Position numbers and translations under genes: made by a program. 15,578 bases of DNA from a virus (taxonomy: Duplodnaviria > Heunggongvirae > Uroviricota > Caudoviricetes). Position 1 is the first letter of the stretch. Every line of letters begins with the position of its first letter. The notes under the pieces are model-generated. The model was not told the DNA's origin, did not search any database, and was given only the letters and a program-made list of their open reading frames with translations. The stretch covers positions 1 to 15,578 of IMG/VR virus record IMGVR_UViG_2534682222_000014; one strand, 5' to 3'. This document shows, piece by piece, positions 2,251 through 10,362 of the stretch.

Positions 2251-3246
2251 TTAAGCTGTCGCAATTACGCCGATCGCCAGTGCTCGATCAATAAAACGCA
2301 GTAGCAGCTCAAGCTGCGTACCATGCTTCTGCTCGAATGCTGGTACATCGGCGTGTAACTCGTCGTGGCACTCTCTGCACAGAGGGATCACGAAGAGGTC
2401 ATGGGCTTTTGTTGCTGTACCACCCATACCGTGCCCTACGATATGGTGCGGATCATCTGCTGGCCGTCGGCAACACTCACAGGGTTGTGTTTTAACCCAG
2501 CGGGTGTACGTCTCATTTATCCAGCGGCGACGTTTTGGCCTGAGCATAAAAGACTCTGGCGACTCCGGATCAACAGAGAGCGTGAGGATCTTCTTCGCCT
2601 TCTCCTGCACGAGTCTGGTTGCTGACGAGGAAGGCACTATGTCGCTTTCCCTCATGACAGAACGGATCTTCTCATCCGGAAGGCGCAACCCTTTGTGCGC
2701 AACGCTTTCCGGAATAACATCAGCCAGGTCGTTTCTGACCATCCACCAGCACAGTTCAGGAAGCGTCAGGATATGCGACTCGGGAAAACCAGAATCACGC
2801 CGAATGACTTCCAGAATCCAGGATACCAGGTTTCCGGCCGCTATACCTGCAAGCTGTTCGGTATGCTGCCCCGACAAAGTGTGATCGCAATGCCAGCACA
2901 GGCGAATACTTCCTGGTGGGTGCCGCATTGTTGTGAAGTTCTTGTCGTGCCACGTTGAATGTGGCCACTGGCATTCAAACCGATTACTCAACCATTGCTC
3001 AAGGGAAGGAAGCCCACCGGCACGCTGAATAACCCTCTCATTCTCGAAGACCTGACGCATTACCGGATCATCAGCTAGCGGCTGAATGGCTGCCGGAACA
3101 GCCCCGGTACTGAATGACGCCATTTCTTCTGGTTCAGGCTCGAGCAGAACGCGACCACGCATGAAGAGGTGCATCAGTTCCGTACCGGGACGGAACAGCA
3201 CAATCCCCATACGATGGGCGATCTCGGGGGTAAGCAGAGCTCTCAC
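2251..3246 (-). CDS. YdfU-like DUF968 family prophage protein with C-terminal HNH-like Cys/His motif
   Basis: C-terminus PCECCRR...HHIVGHGMGG...IPLCRECHDELH is a zinc-finger/HNH-like signature recalled from YdfU/DUF968 proteins. Start uncertain: GTG at 3246 overlaps the Rha stop as GTGA with AGGGGG 9 nt upstream; the alternative GTG at 3279 gives 342 aa. Confidence 0.5.
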   Translation of the reverse strand: MRALLTPEIAHRMGIVLFRPGTELMHLFMRGRVLLEPEPEEMASFSTGAVPAAIQPLADDPVMRQVFENERVIQRAGGLPSLEQWLSNRFECQWPHSTWHDKNFTTMRHPPGSIRLCWHCDHTLSGQHTEQLAGIAAGNLVSWILEVIRRDSGFPESHILTLPELCWWMVRNDLADVIPESVAHKGLRLPDEKIRSVMRESDIVPSSSATRLVQEKAKKILTLSVDPESPESFMLRPKRRRWINETYTRWVKTQPCECCRRPADDPHHIVGHGMGGTATKAHDLFVIPLCRECHDELHADVPAFEQKHGTQLELLLRFIDRALAIGVIATA

Positions 3247-3926
3247 GCGACCTGCCCCCTGGCAATGTGTTCTGCCCACAGTCCACCAATCCAGCGCACG
3301 CCTTTCGCCGTGAAACGTGCCTGGCTGAATGCATGATTTGAGGTTACGGATGTGCCGGTTTTCATTTCAAAACGGCCCGCATCAATATGCTGATGCCGTG
3401 GGGTCATCGTTCCGCCAAGGCGATACATGATGTCGTTCTCAAGGAGGAATAACCGCAGATCTGGCTCTTTGGCCTTAAGCAGTTTTGCCACCTGGCGGAA
3501 TGACATTGACCCACTGGCTGTACAGTACCGATCAACAAACGCTACCTTCGGCGCAGCGGCAGCCAGTTCGTTAGTCAACTGTTGTTTTTGTTCTGCAAGG
3601 TCAGCTGCAAGACGTAGGGCTTCAGAGAATGATTGAGGAATCGTCTGCTGCTGTGCCTGCTCAAGCTCCTGCCAGCGATCAACCAGACGCGCGGTAAACT
3701 CCGGCGACAGCTGCGCGACAACGATATAACTGTCCCGCTTCCCTATCAGATAAACCGATACCGACTGATTGAGGTGATTTTTAACTTCCCCCATTGGGGG
3801 GAGTTCAATAACACCGCGCTCTGCCAGGCGTTCAATGGACCGTTTAACATGGTCATGTCGTGATTCCACCAGCTCAGCAATATCGCTGCTGGACATGGTT
3901 AATGCTGTTGTTGCTAATTGGCTCAT
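3243..3926 (-). CDS. Rha-family phage regulatory protein / antirepressor (Rha N-domain plus KilA-C/ANT-like C-domain)
   Basis: ATG at 3926 preceded by GGAG 7 nt upstream (track ORF extends to 3965). N-terminal SDIAELVESRHDHVKRSIERL matches the Rha-domain signature; C-terminal half resembles antirepressor KilA-C domains. Confidence 0.7.
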   Translation of the reverse strand: MSQLATTALTMSSSDIAELVESRHDHVKRSIERLAERGVIELPPMGEVKNHLNQSVSVYLIGKRDSYIVVAQLSPEFTARLVDRWQELEQAQQQTIPQSFSEALRLAADLAEQKQQLTNELAAAAPKVAFVDRYCTASGSMSFRQVAKLLKAKEPDLRLFLLENDIMYRLGGTMTPRHQHIDAGRFEMKTGTSVTSNHAFSQARFTAKGVRWIGGLWAEHIARGQVA

Positions 3927-6846: not shown

Positions 6847-7398
6847 TTATTTCTCCATACTCGAAGAGTTGTTCGCCAAGGCGCCCGGAGCTGCACACTC
6901 GCGGGCGTCACTCTTTTCAGCGACACAAAAAACTCGGTAAAGCAGCGTGACGTGCTCCTGAAACTTCGCGATCACCTGGTAGCTGTTCTCCTCTATCTGA
7001 GCACGCTCATCTGCGTCAATCACCCCATCAGCAGTAGCCTTTCGCACAAAGGTAGAATGACGACCAATCCATTCAATGGACTCCATCAGGCGCTGGTTAA
7101 TATCGGCGTTATCCAAATCATCAACATCTGCCAGCGGTACGAATACGCCTTGAGAATGGCGCGCAACGGCATCAGCAATATGAGTCGAACCACCAGCACG
7201 CTGTAGAACCATCGCCCAACCCAACGGGAATATCTGATCGCCCTCAGTGCGGAGACGGTTGAACAACCCGTTCTCTGAAGTTCCTAACCATTCCGCGGCC
7301 TCGGCATACCCACCAGGAAGGTCGGTAATGGTTTTTTTTATTGCGACCACCAGCCAGGCTGGCTGACGTTCGACTTTCCAACTAGGTTCATTACCCAC
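6847..7398 (-). CDS. CII-like phage regulatory protein (CP76-type) or YdaT-like protein
   Basis: 183 aa, GTG start with AAGGGGG 6 nt upstream, 23 bp downstream of the cro stop. Assignment rests mainly on position after cro plus general resemblance to the longer CII (CP76) family. Confidence 0.45.
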   Translation of the reverse strand: MGNEPSWKVERQPAWLVVAIKKTITDLPGGYAEAAEWLGTSENGLFNRLRTEGDQIFPLGWAMVLQRAGGSTHIADAVARHSQGVFVPLADVDDLDNADINQRLMESIEWIGRHSTFVRKATADGVIDADERAQIEENSYQVIAKFQEHVTLLYRVFCVAEKSDARECAAPGALANNSSSMEK

Positions 7399-7421: not shown

Positions 7422-7625
7422 TTACTGCTTGTGTTGAGAATTGTTAAGTTTGCTGTAGAGAGAAGCGTCGTATTTCAACTTCCCGTTCGTAATTCTTTCA
7501 ATGTAAAGAGCCTGTTTTTCTGGGATTACTTCACCCCATTGACATACGGCACTGTGAGTTACCCCTAAGGCAACTGCGGTTTTAGAAATGCCGCCGTAGT
7601 AGTCGACGACTGTCCCTTTATGCAT
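7422..7625 (-). CDS. cro: Cro-like repressor (P22 Cro type)
   Basis: 67 aa, ATG preceded by AGAGGA. HTH segment ISKTAVALGVTHSAVCQWGEVIPEK closely resembles P22-type Cro. Divergent from the cI-like gene across a 100-bp operator region. Confidence 0.7.
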   Translation of the reverse strand: MHKGTVVDYYGGISKTAVALGVTHSAVCQWGEVIPEKQALYIERITNGKLKYDASLYSKLNNSQHKQ

Positions 7626-7725
7626 GGTTTGAATCCTCTTTAGTTAGCATTCTTACATCGTATATGGACAGCATACTTACGTCAATAAAATGTAAGATTG
7701 CTAACGTACATTCCGAGGAGATTTT
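7626..7725. promoter_or_regulatory. Divergent oR-like operator/promoter region (pR for cro, pRM for cI)
   Basis: Minus strand: TTGACG -35 (plus 7685-7680) with TATACG/TACGAT -10 candidates upstream of cro. Plus strand: TGGACA (7665-7670) and TAAAAT (7686-7691) upstream of cI. Half-site CTTAC/GTAAG at 7652-7656, 7676-7680 and 7692-7696; 9-mer ATGTAAGAT at 7690-7698. Confidence 0.5.
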
Positions 7726-8358
7726 ATGGATACCGTTGGCAGCAGACTGAGATTTAGAAGAAAGCAGAAAAAACTTACCCAGCGCGATGTGGCTGAGTGG
7801 GCAGGAGTAAGCGCGTCTGCTGTGACCCAGTGGGAAAGTGATTTAACAAAACTTTCTGGTGAGAACTTGATATTGGTGTGTAAATGCCTTCAGTGCTCGC
7901 CAGAATGGTTGGTTTTTGGTTCAGGCGATATCGAAAATGGCATTAACATCAACTTGATGTCTGCCAGAGAGGTCCCTCTCATATCATGGGTGCAAGCTGG
8001 TAATTGGACGGAAGTAATTGGAAATCCTAATAATGAACAAGTGAAAACCACTCGAAAACTTTCTGATTCCGCCTTTGCTTTGAGGGTTAAGGGAGATTCA
8101 ATGACTTCTAGCCAGGAGTTGAGTATTCCTGAAGGTTCTATTGTTATTGTTGAACCAGAGTTCGGCTTCGTGGATGAGGCAAACGGTAAAATTGTCGTTG
8201 CTCAAACGGTATCTGGTGGTGAGGCAACTTTAAAAAAGCTGGCGATAGACCCACCGTTTTCGTACCTAATCCCACTGAATCCTGCGTTTAAACCCATTGA
8301 GGTGAATCAAGAGACCAATCTAATTGGGATAGTTAAACAAATTATCATTGACCTTTAG
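7726..8358 (+). CDS. cI: cI-type prophage repressor (N-terminal XRE HTH, C-terminal LexA-like S24 peptidase)
   Basis: 210 aa, GAGGAG RBS. HTH (LTQRDVAEWAGVSASAVTQWE), Ala-Gly cleavage site (VQAGNW), Ser nucleophile in KGDSM and Lys in ATLKKL, typical of RecA-stimulated autocleaving repressors. Confidence 0.85.
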   Translation: MDTVGSRLRFRRKQKKLTQRDVAEWAGVSASAVTQWESDLTKLSGENLILVCKCLQCSPEWLVFGSGDIENGININLMSAREVPLISWVQAGNWTEVIGNPNNEQVKTTRKLSDSAFALRVKGDSMTSSQELSIPEGSIVIVEPEFGFVDEANGKIVVAQTVSGGEATLKKLAIDPPFSYLIPLNPAFKPIEVNQETNLIGIVKQIIIDL

Positions 8359-8374: not shown

Positions 8375-8402
8375 AAGCCCGCTGATCATGCGGGCTTTTT
8401 TA
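8375..8402 (+). terminator. Intrinsic terminator directly after the repressor gene
   Basis: AAGCCCGC-TGATCAT-GCGGGCTT hairpin followed by TTTTT, 17 bp after the cI stop. Not followed by a U-run on the opposite strand, so rightward only. Confidence 0.7.
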
Positions 8403-8414
8403 TGCCTGTGAAAA

Positions 8415-8469
8415 TATAGTAAGCAAACTTACAAAATAGACTTGACTGTAAATGTAAGATGTCTAATAT
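8415..8469 (+). promoter_or_regulatory. pL-like early-left promoter with operator sites
   Basis: TTGACT (8442-8447), 16-bp spacer, TAATAT (8464-8469). Near-palindromic 18-mer TAGTAAGCAAACTTACAA at 8415-8432, and ATGTAAGAT at 8452-8460 inside the spacer, identical to the 9-mer in the oR region. Confidence 0.5.
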
Positions 8470-8505
8470 TAAATCCATCAGCAACGAACATTGTGGGCAT
8501 CAGGA

Positions 8506-8709
8506 ATGAAGATAGAGTTGGTTGTTAACGGGAAAATTACTGCTGAGTGCAGTGATGAATCGGAGTTTCTGGCATTCAATGCTGCCGTTTTTAGCGCTCT
8601 ATCGGACATGCAACTTACCCTTCATTCCGAACGAAGGGCTCGTTCAAAATCTAAAATGGCGGCCTTCAATGAGAAGTTTTTTAAAACGGATCCCACGGGT
8701 CGCAATTAA
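8506..8709 (+). CDS. Hypothetical small protein (67 aa) downstream of the pL-like promoter
   Basis: ATG at 8506 (track ORF starts at TTG 8491). AGGA lies immediately next to the ATG, so translation signals are weak. Internal basic patch HSERRARSKSK but no N-terminal Arg-rich motif, so not called N. Overlaps a convergent ORF. Confidence 0.3.
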   Translation: MKIELVVNGKITAECSDESEFLAFNAAVFSALSDMQLTLHSERRARSKSKMAAFNEKFFKTDPTGRN

Positions 8710-8914
8710 GAGAATCAAGAAGCTTAATGGTTTGATAGGTGATGGCTTCCTGTTTAACAGTGTTTTCTGGGCTTGACAGTTGATCGCGCAATAATTGTAT
8801 TTGGTTATGCAGGTCATCTGATAGTGGGCCCTCATTAGCACATATTGCAGCTGAAATGGTCTTAATCGCAGCTTCAATAGCAGTGAGTCTTAACTCAATA
8901 ATATCGTTATTCAT
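8681..8914 (-). CDS. Hypothetical small acidic helical protein (77 aa), convergent with and overlapping the previous ORF
   Basis: ATG at 8914 (MNNDIIELRLTAIEAAIKTISAAICANEGPLSDDLHNQIQLLRDQL...), embedded in a longer track ORF. Weak RBS. AT-rich. 3' end overlaps the plus-strand ORF by 29 bp. Confidence 0.3.
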   Translation of the reverse strand: MNNDIIELRLTAIEAAIKTISAAICANEGPLSDDLHNQIQLLRDQLSSPENTVKQEAITYQTIKLLDSLNCDPWDPF

Positions 8915-9183
8915 AGGTTTATCTTCTTGGCTGTGTGAGAACTCCAAGAATACCACCGAGCCTGATGTGGTGAAAAGACAGGCATAGCCCAGACGATATC
9001 TGAGTGGCTTAAAAAACAGATGGGAACCGGTGGAATCCCGGTACACAACGAAAAGAGCGCTGGCATGCAAAAAATATCTCGCAGCCGTAGCAGTACCAAA
9101 AGCCAGGATGGAACGGCAGAAACGCGGTAGTGCTCTTTTTGATGTGGTAAACCCGTAGTAGCTGTACCAGATGCTGTGTGTAG

Positions 9184-9258
9184 TCTTGGCGGTACCAGGG
9201 TCTTCAACCTTATGCAAGGGGGACGAAGATAATGTTCTACCTCGGTACCGCCCTTTTT
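9184..9258 (+). ncRNA. Long hairpin with 3' T-run; candidate terminator or processed sRNA with DicF-like ends
   Basis: Perfect 9-bp stem GGCGGTACC (9188-9196) / GGTACCGCC (9244-9252) enclosing a 47-nt loop with internal pairings (CCTT-ATGC-AAGG, TCTTC/GAAGA), followed by TTTTT (9254-9258). The 5' arm TTGGCGGTACCAG and the 3' CCGCCCTTTTT resemble my recollection of E. coli DicF. Not verified. Confidence 0.25.
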
Positions 9259-9444
9259 ACACAACAGACAAGGGCATCACCGGGCGACGGGCTCATAACC
9301 CAATCCACCCGGGCAAAAAGAAAGCGGTCTCTCAAGCCGCCGACCAATGCAGGTGCCCTTCTCTGTTGTGTATGGAGAAAGTTCGGCGGTGGCAGCCGCC
9401 TTAACTTCGTGTATGGACTAAAACCTTGTGCAGAGGAAAGTTAA

Positions 9445-10362
9445 ATGAAATTACCTAAGTTCCGTAACGCAATCGTGTACCGCGCCACACTACCTAGCAT
9501 TGAAGCTATCGAGGGGCATCTGCTTGAACTCCCCTACTCCGAGATTGGTGAAACTGAGTTTTCACGCGCCTCTTTTGTGCCAAACACGATCACTGGCGAA
9601 TTGGTCACCCCAATATCAGGTGGGTATGCCATCGTGATCCGCCATGATCAGAAAATCATTCCCCAGCATGTTGTTTTGAAGGAAGCCGCAGCACGGATCC
9701 AAAGAATCGAAGATATGTCCGGGAGTAAAATCAAACGTATCGAACGATTAGCAATTATCGACAGCGTCCGCGTTGACCTGTGTAAACGGGCATTTGTTAA
9801 ATCAACGCTGATCCTTGCGTTGTACAGCACCAACGAAAAGCTATTAGTGGTCAATACGACCAATAAAAATATTGCCGGTATGGCTGTGGCTATGCTGGTG
9901 AAAGTTGTCGGTTCCGTTAAAACAGAAACAATCAACATTAGCGATATTAAGAACGGTTTAACTACGCGGTTGAAAAACTATATCAATGGCGTGGCCAATG
10001 CTTTTGAAGGGTTTACCGTCGGCAATTATATCCAGCTGTCCCGCCTTGCCGATCAAAATGAAGTTATTCGCTACTCAGCTGAACACGACTCAATTCAAAG
10101 CGAGCTAGTTGATAGCCTTAATAGCGGCTTTACCGCTGATAAAATGGAGCTAGCAGGATGCGGTGTATCGTTCATCCTCACCGAAAATTTCCATTTTTCG
10201 CGCATCAATACCCAAGCCCAAACATTCAACGATGAAGATGATAAAGCATTTCAATGGCGCCATCAGGCCGGGACGGATCTACTCCAATTCAGCAAAGTAG
10301 TAAACCTGATGTGTGATCTTCTTTCGTACAAAGAAGAACAGCCACAAAAACCCGCAGCCTAA
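9445..10362 (+). CDS. rdgC: RdgC-like recombination-associated protein
   Basis: 305 aa, GAGGAAA RBS. N-terminal FRNAIVYR and GYAIVIRHDQKIIPQHVVLKEAAARIQRIE align by eye with E. coli RdgC ([37 protein letters not shown]); length matches. Confidence 0.65.
   Translation: MKLPKFRNAIVYRATLPSIEAIEGHLLELPYSEIGETEFSRASFVPNTITGELVTPISGGYAIVIRHDQKIIPQHVVLKEAAARIQRIEDMSGSKIKRIERLAIIDSVRVDLCKRAFVKSTLILALYSTNEKLLVVNTTNKNIAGMAVAMLVKVVGSVKTETINISDIKNGLTTRLKNYINGVANAFEGFTVGNYIQLSRLADQNEVIRYSAEHDSIQSELVDSLNSGFTADKMELAGCGVSFILTENFHFSRINTQAQTFNDEDDKAFQWRHQAGTDLLQFSKVVNLMCDLLSYKEEQPQKPAA

Follow-up and report, generated by a model that had tools for sequence, protein, structure and literature searches.

Two small convergent open reading frames (ORFs) at 8506-8914 of IMG/VR virus record IMGVR_UViG_2534682222_000014, a 15,578 nt stretch of DNA that was analysed at its full length and that we call the window, look like a new cargo and partner set in what we term the 'sieB slot' of lambdoid prophages; the arrangement is known, and the two protein families, both uncharacterised, are new to it. 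We lean toward reading the pair as a two-gene accessory cassette at the head of a lambdoid early-left operon, in which the minus-strand gene would be expressed from the prophage and then shut off by transcription from the early-left promoter (pL), and the plus-strand gene would be expressed early. At 100% identity, the window matches a prophage of the Escherichia coli chromosome NZ_LR536430.1, and a lambdoid immunity region surrounds the pair (Table 1).

The plus ORF runs from an ATG at 8506-8508 to a TAA at 8707-8709 (67 aa) and the minus ORF from an ATG at 8914-8912 to a TAA at 8683-8681 (77 aa), so that they overlap tail to tail by the 29 bp from 8681 to 8709, exactly as a first-pass annotation of this DNA had placed them. 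Their sizes alone prove nothing, because the window contains 121 ORFs of at least 40 aa, and the NCBI pipeline annotates the minus ORF and leaves the plus ORF without an entry. It is comparison with relatives that sets the two ORFs apart from chance: 22 further loci (21 from IMG/VR, one from Citrobacter, L003) have an identical 409-bp arrangement at 72-100% nucleotide identity, with both frames open in 22/22 and a 29-bp overlap in every one. Across 11 distinct haplotypes, counting only the part unique to each ORF, variable columns at codon positions 1/2/3 number 24/16/45 for plus and 18/11/54 for minus, and pairwise ratios of nonsynonymous to synonymous substitution (dN/dS) are ~0.1-0.2 and ~0.05-0.1, respectively; a deletion in the minus gene of locus L018 is in frame (12 nt). 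The earlier suggestion that at least one of the two may be non-coding is contradicted by these signatures, by which both ORFs are genuine protein-coding genes under purifying selection. Of the 10 columns that vary within the overlap, 7 are third positions of the minus frame, corresponding to second positions of the plus frame; the minus C-terminus is therefore the selected part of the overlap, with the plus tail passive. Ribosome-binding signals are weak in the window, as had been remarked (AGGA abutting the plus ATG; AAGAAG 9-14 nt before the minus ATG), and better in diverged relatives, where GAGGAG precedes the plus ATG by ~10 nt and AAGG(A) lies ahead of the minus ATG.

Upstream of the minus gene, 70 nt (8915-8985) are conserved to a degree otherwise seen at codon positions 1 and 2 (90% mean identity, 76% of positions invariant; identity at third positions is 61-65%). 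In the L020 group of relatives a TAA stands in frame four codons ahead of the minus ATG, which shows that this stretch is non-coding. It is nearly unchanged in locus L028 despite a minus protein of only 45% identity. Its distal part is a ~35-nt core that reads GCCTG-TCTTTTC-ACCAC-AT-CAGGC-TCG-GTGGT on the minus strand, from 8983 down to 8952. The GCCTG/CAGGC helix shows compensatory changes (T-A to C-G, T-A to G-C and G-C to T-A), with a covariation of 0.071 against 0.037 +/- 0.007 in shuffles (0/500 as high). A pseudoknot was considered and set aside, with only this one helix supported; the CCAC/GTGG pair is nearly invariant and has no compensatory change, and so speaks neither for nor against pairing. 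The core was likewise rejected as an intrinsic terminator, no U-run being visible by eye after either helix on either strand.

Between core and start codon lies a hairpin whose 3' arm continues into the purine-rich ribosome-binding region and then the ATG at 8914. In a fixed-register alignment, 28 cells have changed on both sides at four of its pairs, and the ~26 distinct arm pairs are almost always perfectly complementary; the hairpin scores 0.376 for covariation, where shuffles give 0.127 +/- 0.025 (0/500 as high) and slid controls at most 0.152. By this comparative measure covariation is present in the hairpin and in one core helix. In 75/93 cases the pL-sense strand has the lower minimum free energy, which may merely mirror its richness in G+U. 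The stems contain almost no G.U pairs and so leave the strand of the hairpin RNA undecided; that scarcity would fit constraint on both strands. Rfam gives no match at gathering thresholds anywhere in the window and nothing within 8915-8985 at E <= 5, the only weak match to touch the element being a fragment of the FMN riboswitch (8967-9044, 17.9 bits against a threshold of 66). No description of the element as a conserved covarying structure was found in the literature searched, in which older work on lambda is thinly covered and which yielded nothing relevant on the sieB promoter, on tL1 or on a hotspot.

At the junction of core and hairpin sits a candidate extended -10 for the minus gene. 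The pattern TGnTATnnT is kept in all single-hairpin relatives while the arms around it covary, the hexamer reading TATTCT, TATCCT, TATCTT, TATGCT, TATACT or TATATT. By homology to phage P22, the minus mRNA should start near 8940, inside the hairpin loop, and no structure is predicted for the 26-nt leader from that point (0 kcal/mol). The loop/leader motif TGGAGTTCTCACACA(A/G)CC is also found in nine G+C-rich, otherwise unrelated IMG/VR contigs that lack the core (L184, L186, L188, L192, L211, L229, L248, L252 and L257), directly after -10-like hexamers (TACGAT, GACAAT, TAGGAT, GATAAT) and inside larger inverted repeats with a Shine-Dalgarno sequence in the 3' arm. These contigs look like candidates for the same design; the pattern search returned 120 matches, some of which are expected by chance.

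The regulatory element is, on sequence and position, homologous to that of sieB. A 76-nt query spanning it matches 140 phage records, including lambda, HK620, SfV, SfII, Rac-SA53 and VT1-Sakai, and a 17-nt core pattern occurs in more than 120 viral contigs. The lambda core lies at 34,410-34,426 on the sieB strand, ~55 nt before the sieB start (34,482). In the P22 GenBank record, the sieB promoter (29,690-29,720) and RNA start (29,727) are annotated just downstream of the core; in the hairpin nearest the promoter, the 5' arm is overlapped by the annotated -10 and the loop contains the RNA start. Lambda has the same arrangement, with compensatory changes in the arms. Ranade and Poteete reportedly described the sieB promoters of P22 and lambda as homologous in 1993. 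The element also precedes SfII_36, Rac-SA53 rac10, e14 ymfI and genes in phiES15 and pAEv1818. All genes behind it are oriented against pL, and their 3' ends often overlap the first pL gene: lambda N and sieB abut and P22 gene 24 and sieB are 20 bp apart, while ymfJ/ymfI of e14 overlap by 63 bp, rac11/rac10 of Rac-SA53 by 39 bp and genes 20/19 of pAEv1818 by 30 bp. Clustered by BLAST, those behind the core formed 18 unrelated families for an initial set of loci, rising to 30 when more loci were added, with no BLAST link between cargo families. Because some 18-30 unrelated genes thus follow the same core, the slot is a variable one, with the minus gene as one of its cargoes and sieB as the example already known.

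The homolog searches proposed by the first-pass annotation returned a small set of relatives for each peptide. A tblastn search of 50,697 phage records with both proteins gave none of them; the family resides in prophages and viral contigs. The pair is kept together in ~25 loci, down to ~45% protein identity. Locus L028 has the same 29-bp overlap with a minus protein of 45% and a plus protein of ~34% identity, and L031 combines a minus protein of 65% identity with a distant plus relative across a 50-bp overlap. Distant minus relatives again adjoin a repressor of the S24 type. The left limit of similarity is ~8472 for closer relatives and 8505 for distant ones, the right limit is a sharp one at 8984-8987, and the flanks are unrelated. 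None of the mosaic breakpoints in the 22 closer loci separates the two genes; they lie on either side of the pair. As regards a moron or accessory cassette of the prophage, opposite orientation and mosaic distribution are observed, the promoter is a predicted one, the G+C content (0.40-0.45) does not set the pair apart from the immunity region, and no terminator is present. The plus family has been seen with only two cargo families, the second being a 78-aa cargo, phrog_10348, that faces a distant plus homolog (hhalign E 1e-4). Overall similarity between this cargo and the minus protein is undetectable, and yet it ends in D-L-W-D-A-Y where the minus protein ends in D-P-W-D-P-F, a common D-x-W-D-x-[FY] motif that shared overlap DNA does not explain, because the register of the overlap differs there. 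Functional coupling of the plus and minus proteins is, on this sequence evidence, possible rather than demonstrated.

Expression timing, shut-off and protein roles are our inference, as follows. The plus gene, first behind pL, would be silent in the lysogen because repressor would occupy the operators in the promoter, and would be made at once on induction or infection. The minus gene, in the sieB slot and against pL, would have its own weak extended -10 embedded in the core and hairpin element. Its own transcripts would carry an open, translatable 26-nt leader because the RNA would start inside the hairpin loop, and transcripts arriving from outside, in either direction, would contain the whole hairpin. 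The minus protein would be a product of the lysogen. The promoter and terminator scan places no terminator between the two genes, so pL transcription would cross the entire minus gene in antisense, ribosome site and promoter included, and on induction the minus gene could be shut down by collision, promoter occlusion and RNA pairing. Two readings of the hairpin, compatible with each other and equally conditional, suggest themselves. It may hide the ribosome site in cargo-strand read-through transcripts, an insulation like the fold-back of IS10, or it may belong to an antisense RNA (from pL read-through, or one like P22 sas) as a stem-loop whose loop is the complement of the extreme 5' end of the mRNA. 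In the late SOS response, e14 ymfJ rises by up to ~log2 4.8 and YmfJ protein is detected, with ymfI barely changing (PMC11002266); since ymfJ is induced and ymfI is nearly flat, these data fit a partner that is switched on at induction and a cargo that is not. Our guess is that the minus protein is an exclusion or host-modifying factor of the prophage and that the plus protein is an early factor that may counteract it. Of the antisense-controlled exclusion module that the first-pass annotation had in mind, the control and the position gain support, from the location, the homology of the element to that of sieB and the precedent of P22 sas; evidence from protein function gives the exclusion part none.

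This account must be tempered by several observations that weigh against it. The consensus promoter scan did not call the minus -10, and the promoter rests on positional homology to the annotated promoter of another phage, P22, in which the core sits upstream of that promoter. The fold energies of the element are unremarkable (z ~ -0.4 to -0.5). Neither protein matches a family of known function or fold, and 'exclusion' is thus argued, by analogy, from position. As to the coupling of the two genes, a Pantoea locus (L029) has an intact minus gene (64% identity) beside a plus gene without its N-terminal half, and in Budvicia (L004) a plus relative lies among tail genes beside an unrelated convergent ORF, so coupling is not obligatory; YmfJ-type partners, the first pL genes elsewhere, are found with at least 9 cargo families, so that free assortment of partner and cargo is possible; and the 409-bp linkage and the overlap could by themselves explain co-inheritance. 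These last points are also what favors treating plus and minus as independent neighbors, an early host-takeover gene and an unrelated moron whose overlap came from compactness and whose joint travel came from close linkage, as do overlaps of 0-63 bp in unrelated pairs of lambda, e14, Rac-SA53 and pAEv1818. We regard such independence as possible, if on the unlikely side, because the 29-bp overlap persists to 45% (minus) and ~34% (plus) identity, because breakpoints spare the pair throughout the closer loci, and because a deeply diverged plus homolog faces a cargo of 78 aa with the same C-terminal motif.

The proteins themselves bear on whether this is merely the standard lambda set in disguise. 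The plus protein is modeled as a beta-hairpin followed by one 40-residue helix (AlphaFold2, mean predicted local distance difference test (pLDDT) 83.6, falling to 57 in the tail); it has no match in Pfam, PHROG, NCBIfam or PADLOC, a sequence profile search of the PDB returned none, and its family profile retrieved 7 proteins from 1.8 billion cluster representatives, 2 of them repetitive false friends. An N-type antiterminator was rejected: the N-terminus (MKIELVVNGKITAECSDE) has no Arg, no Pfam or PHROG match points that way, and the ~27-nt leader has no boxA/boxB hairpin and is too short for a nut site. Kil, CIII and other named early-left proteins were rejected as well, nothing having come from Pfam, PHROGs, NCBIfam, PADLOC, fold or PDB profile searches. 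A plus relative of 38% identity occurs in Budvicia aquatica (L004, 3998-4420) together with a convergent ORF of 73 aa whose ribosome site is good; it is inserted among lambda-type tail genes and not beside a repressor, the core element is absent there, and a relation of the convergent ORF to the minus protein is undetectable.

The minus protein, annotated as WP_001058060.1 by the NCBI Prokaryotic Genome Annotation Pipeline, matches phrog_28250 (E 3e-39; function uncharacterised), its only PHROG, and has relatives down to 45% identity; Pfam at E <= 0.01, NCBIfam and PADLOC give nothing. It is modeled as three helices (AlphaFold2, pLDDT 66.6). Foldseek searches of both models against PDB and BFVD found nothing at E < 0.001, the best PDB fold match being a PfiAT complex (E 3.8, not significant), and sequence searches of the PDB for both proteins found nothing significant. 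Membership in the SieB family was rejected, as BLAST clustering separates the minus family from SieB. The lambda protein in this slot, SieB, has ~183 aa with hydrophobic segments, whereas the minus protein has 77 aa, is acidic and lacks a membrane-type segment. SieB aborts the lytic growth of superinfecting phages and has an in-frame Esc product; the minus sequence shows no internal in-frame Met with a ribosome site.

A divergent N or Kil (plus) and a divergent SieB (minus) would stand exactly where lambda has N and sieB, behind a sieB-type element, but we consider this very improbable: neither protein falls in a Pfam or PHROG family of known function, the plus protein lacks the N-terminal arginine-rich motif and its leader lacks boxA/boxB, the minus protein is small, acidic and soluble-looking, and the cargo families are unlinked by BLAST. 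The pair is likewise not simply an N-like or Kil-like gene, an outcome that the first-pass annotation had allowed for. That one ORF is really a non-coding antisense RNA of a type I toxin-antitoxin-like module, as the weak ribosome sites and the convergent, 3'-overlapping transcripts of some Gram-positive prophage systems (txpA/RatA, bsrG/SR4) might suggest, is hardly credible given the strong protein-level selection on both ORFs, the good Shine-Dalgarno sites of relatives, the unconserved internal antisense promoter (see below) and the lack of any hydrophobic membrane-type segment or Pfam, NCBIfam or PADLOC family, which also leaves the toxin flavor of the earlier annotation unsupported. A type II toxin-antitoxin system was rejected, the genes being convergent and not co-directional and Pfam and PADLOC finding no toxin-antitoxin domains.

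Table 1. Coordinates of the ORF pair, its regulatory sequences and the surrounding immunity region in the window
Feature	Position	Strand	Remarks
CII/YmfL-type gene	6847-7398	-	
P22-type cro	7422-7625	-	
Repressor	7726-8358	+	helix-turn-helix and S24-peptidase
Terminator-like hairpin	8375-8397		
pL-type early-left promoter	8420..8471	+	TTGACT 8442-8447, TAATAT 8464-8469, 16-nt spacer; called by promoter scan
Plus-gene 5' leader	8472..8505	+	left cassette edge in closer relatives; similarity to phages with unrelated immunity regions starts at 8466-8476
Plus gene, 67 aa	8506..8709	+	first gene of early-left operon; small orphan family; frame open in closer relatives
Tail-to-tail overlap	8681..8709	both	encodes near-invariant minus C-terminus CDPW[DE]PF and poorly conserved plus tail
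Minus gene, 77 aa	8681..8914	-	acidic, predicted three-helix protein; cargo of the 'sieB slot'
Covarying hairpin	8924..8950	-	arms TTCTTGG 8950-8944 and CCAAGAA 8930-8924; loop AGTTCTCACACAG 8943-8931
Candidate extended -10 of minus gene, TGGTATTCT	8947..8955	-	predicted RNA start near 8940
Conserved core, GCCTGTCTTTTCACCACATCAGGCTCGGTGGT	8952..8985	-	helix GCCTG/CAGGC (8979-8983 with 8960-8964) and nearly invariant CCAC...GTGG; right cassette edge
rdgC	9445-10362	+	further early-left genes, xis and int beyond

The pair does lie directly downstream of a pL-like promoter, as had been claimed; in addition to the scan call, the spacer of that promoter (8450-8466, ATGTAAGATGTCTAA) contains an operator-like repeat, ATGTAAGATnnCTAA, two further copies of which lie in the cro/repressor intergenic region (7643-7705) as a closely matching inverted pair. 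Another related copy is found at 8420-8434, and the whole stretch 8420..8471 varies among phages with other repressors. A pL under repressor control would be expected to look like this, and such control is thereby supported. A second promoter, proposed on the plus strand inside the minus ORF (8773..8801), is present as letters (TTGACA 8773-8778, 17 nt, TGTATT 8796-8801), and its function is unsupported: TTGACA is unique to the haplotype of the window, with TTGAAA, TTGAGA, TAGAAA or TAGCAA in relatives; the -10 has no A at position 2; the promoter scan did not call the site; and the synonymous sites that cover it (minus codons 38-48) vary freely.

Two features of the minus gene merit separate mention. 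Its first ~20 codons (8855-8914) have fewer variable third positions, 3-5 per 8 codons against 7-8 elsewhere in the gene, which is compatible with an overlapping signal or a constraint on translation initiation. The plus strand there reads TAATAT at 8900-8905 (TAAGAT, CAATAT, TAATTT or TAAGTT in relatives) with no good -35; speculatively, an RNA launched from it would start at the minus start codon and consist, in antisense, of exactly the hairpin and core. At the other end, residues 71-77 (8684-8704) form an invariant CDPW[DE]PF, a Pro-Phe-COOH terminus after acidic residues. The C-terminal tip of SSB (the protein that binds single-stranded DNA), DDDIPF, recruits many host DNA enzymes (PMC5872125), and mimicry of that tip by the minus tail is a resemblance and only a lead. 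The gene lies just upstream of rdgC and other recombination genes.

The 530 bp after the cassette and before rdgC hold no convincing gene. Positions 8987-9444 are a patchwork of segments common to different phages. More than 300 complete E. coli genomes have a segment 90-99% identical to 9240-9405, without annotation; a short central piece is conserved in phage Flotzy with the reading frame lost to either side, and PHROG 33599 matches a different frame. This could be a non-coding element or the leader of rdgC. The window contains no tRNA gene; in a prophage of E. coli 2017C-4173W12 (L002), which has the same kind of repressor upstream, a tRNA-Arg (3221-3297) directly follows the homolog of window positions 8907-9147. 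In loci L020, L022 and L023, ~1.1 kb of extra DNA separates the repressor gene from the terminator and pL region, which is the position of rexAB in lambda. A gene for 40-51 aa (MK[ML][VI]KNM[AS]NTS...LRLFP...) comes first after the repressor, ahead of the plus-type gene or its remnant, in L029 (4365-4487) and L031 (4608-4763).

If the cassette reading is right, two uncharacterised families join the genes that prophages use against other phages or for their own induction. To our minds, the by-product of more interest than the pair itself is the element, which is conserved, covaries and marks a slot for variable cargo. As a sequence handle of ~70 nt for harvesting opposed cargo genes by pL, it could yield dozens of candidate exclusion or defense proteins, and a hairpin with an RNA start in its loop would be a compact design that could insulate a potentially harmful gene from read-through and permit its switch-off by antisense RNA. 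A bolder version, which we think unlikely as a whole, would make core and hairpin the mark of an undescribed hypervariable slot for at least ~18-30 unrelated small genes, SieB being just one, and a hotspot for prophage-expressed exclusion or defense genes. Control would be built in: with the RNA start inside a hairpin, translation would be confined to the transcript of the gene itself, and read-through from pL or an RNA like sas would silence it. Plus and minus would be an early antidote and an exclusion protein, and the D-x-W-D-x-[FY] tail would mediate recognition, its target being either the plus protein or, through mimicry of the SSB tip, the host enzymes that bind SSB.

Among known systems, lambda N/sieB and P22 gene 24/sieB-esc come closest, with the same succession of repressor, pL, first early gene and an opposed gene that meets its 3' end, and the same core upstream of the latter; P22 sieB is expressed from the prophage and controlled by the antisense sas RNA (PMC7067206, PMC12197685, PMC10883804). 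They differ in that the proteins described here are unrelated to N, gene 24 or SieB, that the genes overlap here by 29 bp, that no second start of the Esc type and no N/nut system is visible, and that lambda and P22 have two hairpins between core and start codon, where the window has one, with its predicted -10 fused to the core. In IS10 (fold-back inhibition and RNA-OUT/RNA-IN), the promoter and RNA start lie in an inverted repeat, and read-through transcripts fold and hide the ribosome site. The minus element would share with it an open transcript of its own and an antisense stem-loop whose loop complements the extreme 5' end of the mRNA, by analogy of design only, in a phage and not a transposon context and with no sequence relation. 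The pairs ymfJ/ymfI of e14 and rac11/rac10 of Rac-SA53 are likewise small, convergent and 3'-overlapping, lie by the repressor and have the core and hairpin upstream of ymfI and rac10, and e14 ymfJ behaves like a repressor-controlled gene induced late in the SOS response (PMC11002266). Their proteins share no sequence similarity with ours (YmfJ and YmfI were rejected as homologs of either protein and serve as architectural analogues), and YmfJ-type partners occur with many cargo families where the plus family has two. Lambda OOP RNA and cII provide a further case of convergent transcripts with overlapping 3' ends and antisense control in an immunity region (PMC7067206). OOP, however, is a short non-coding RNA with its own terminator, whereas here both partners are protein-coding and no terminator lies between them.

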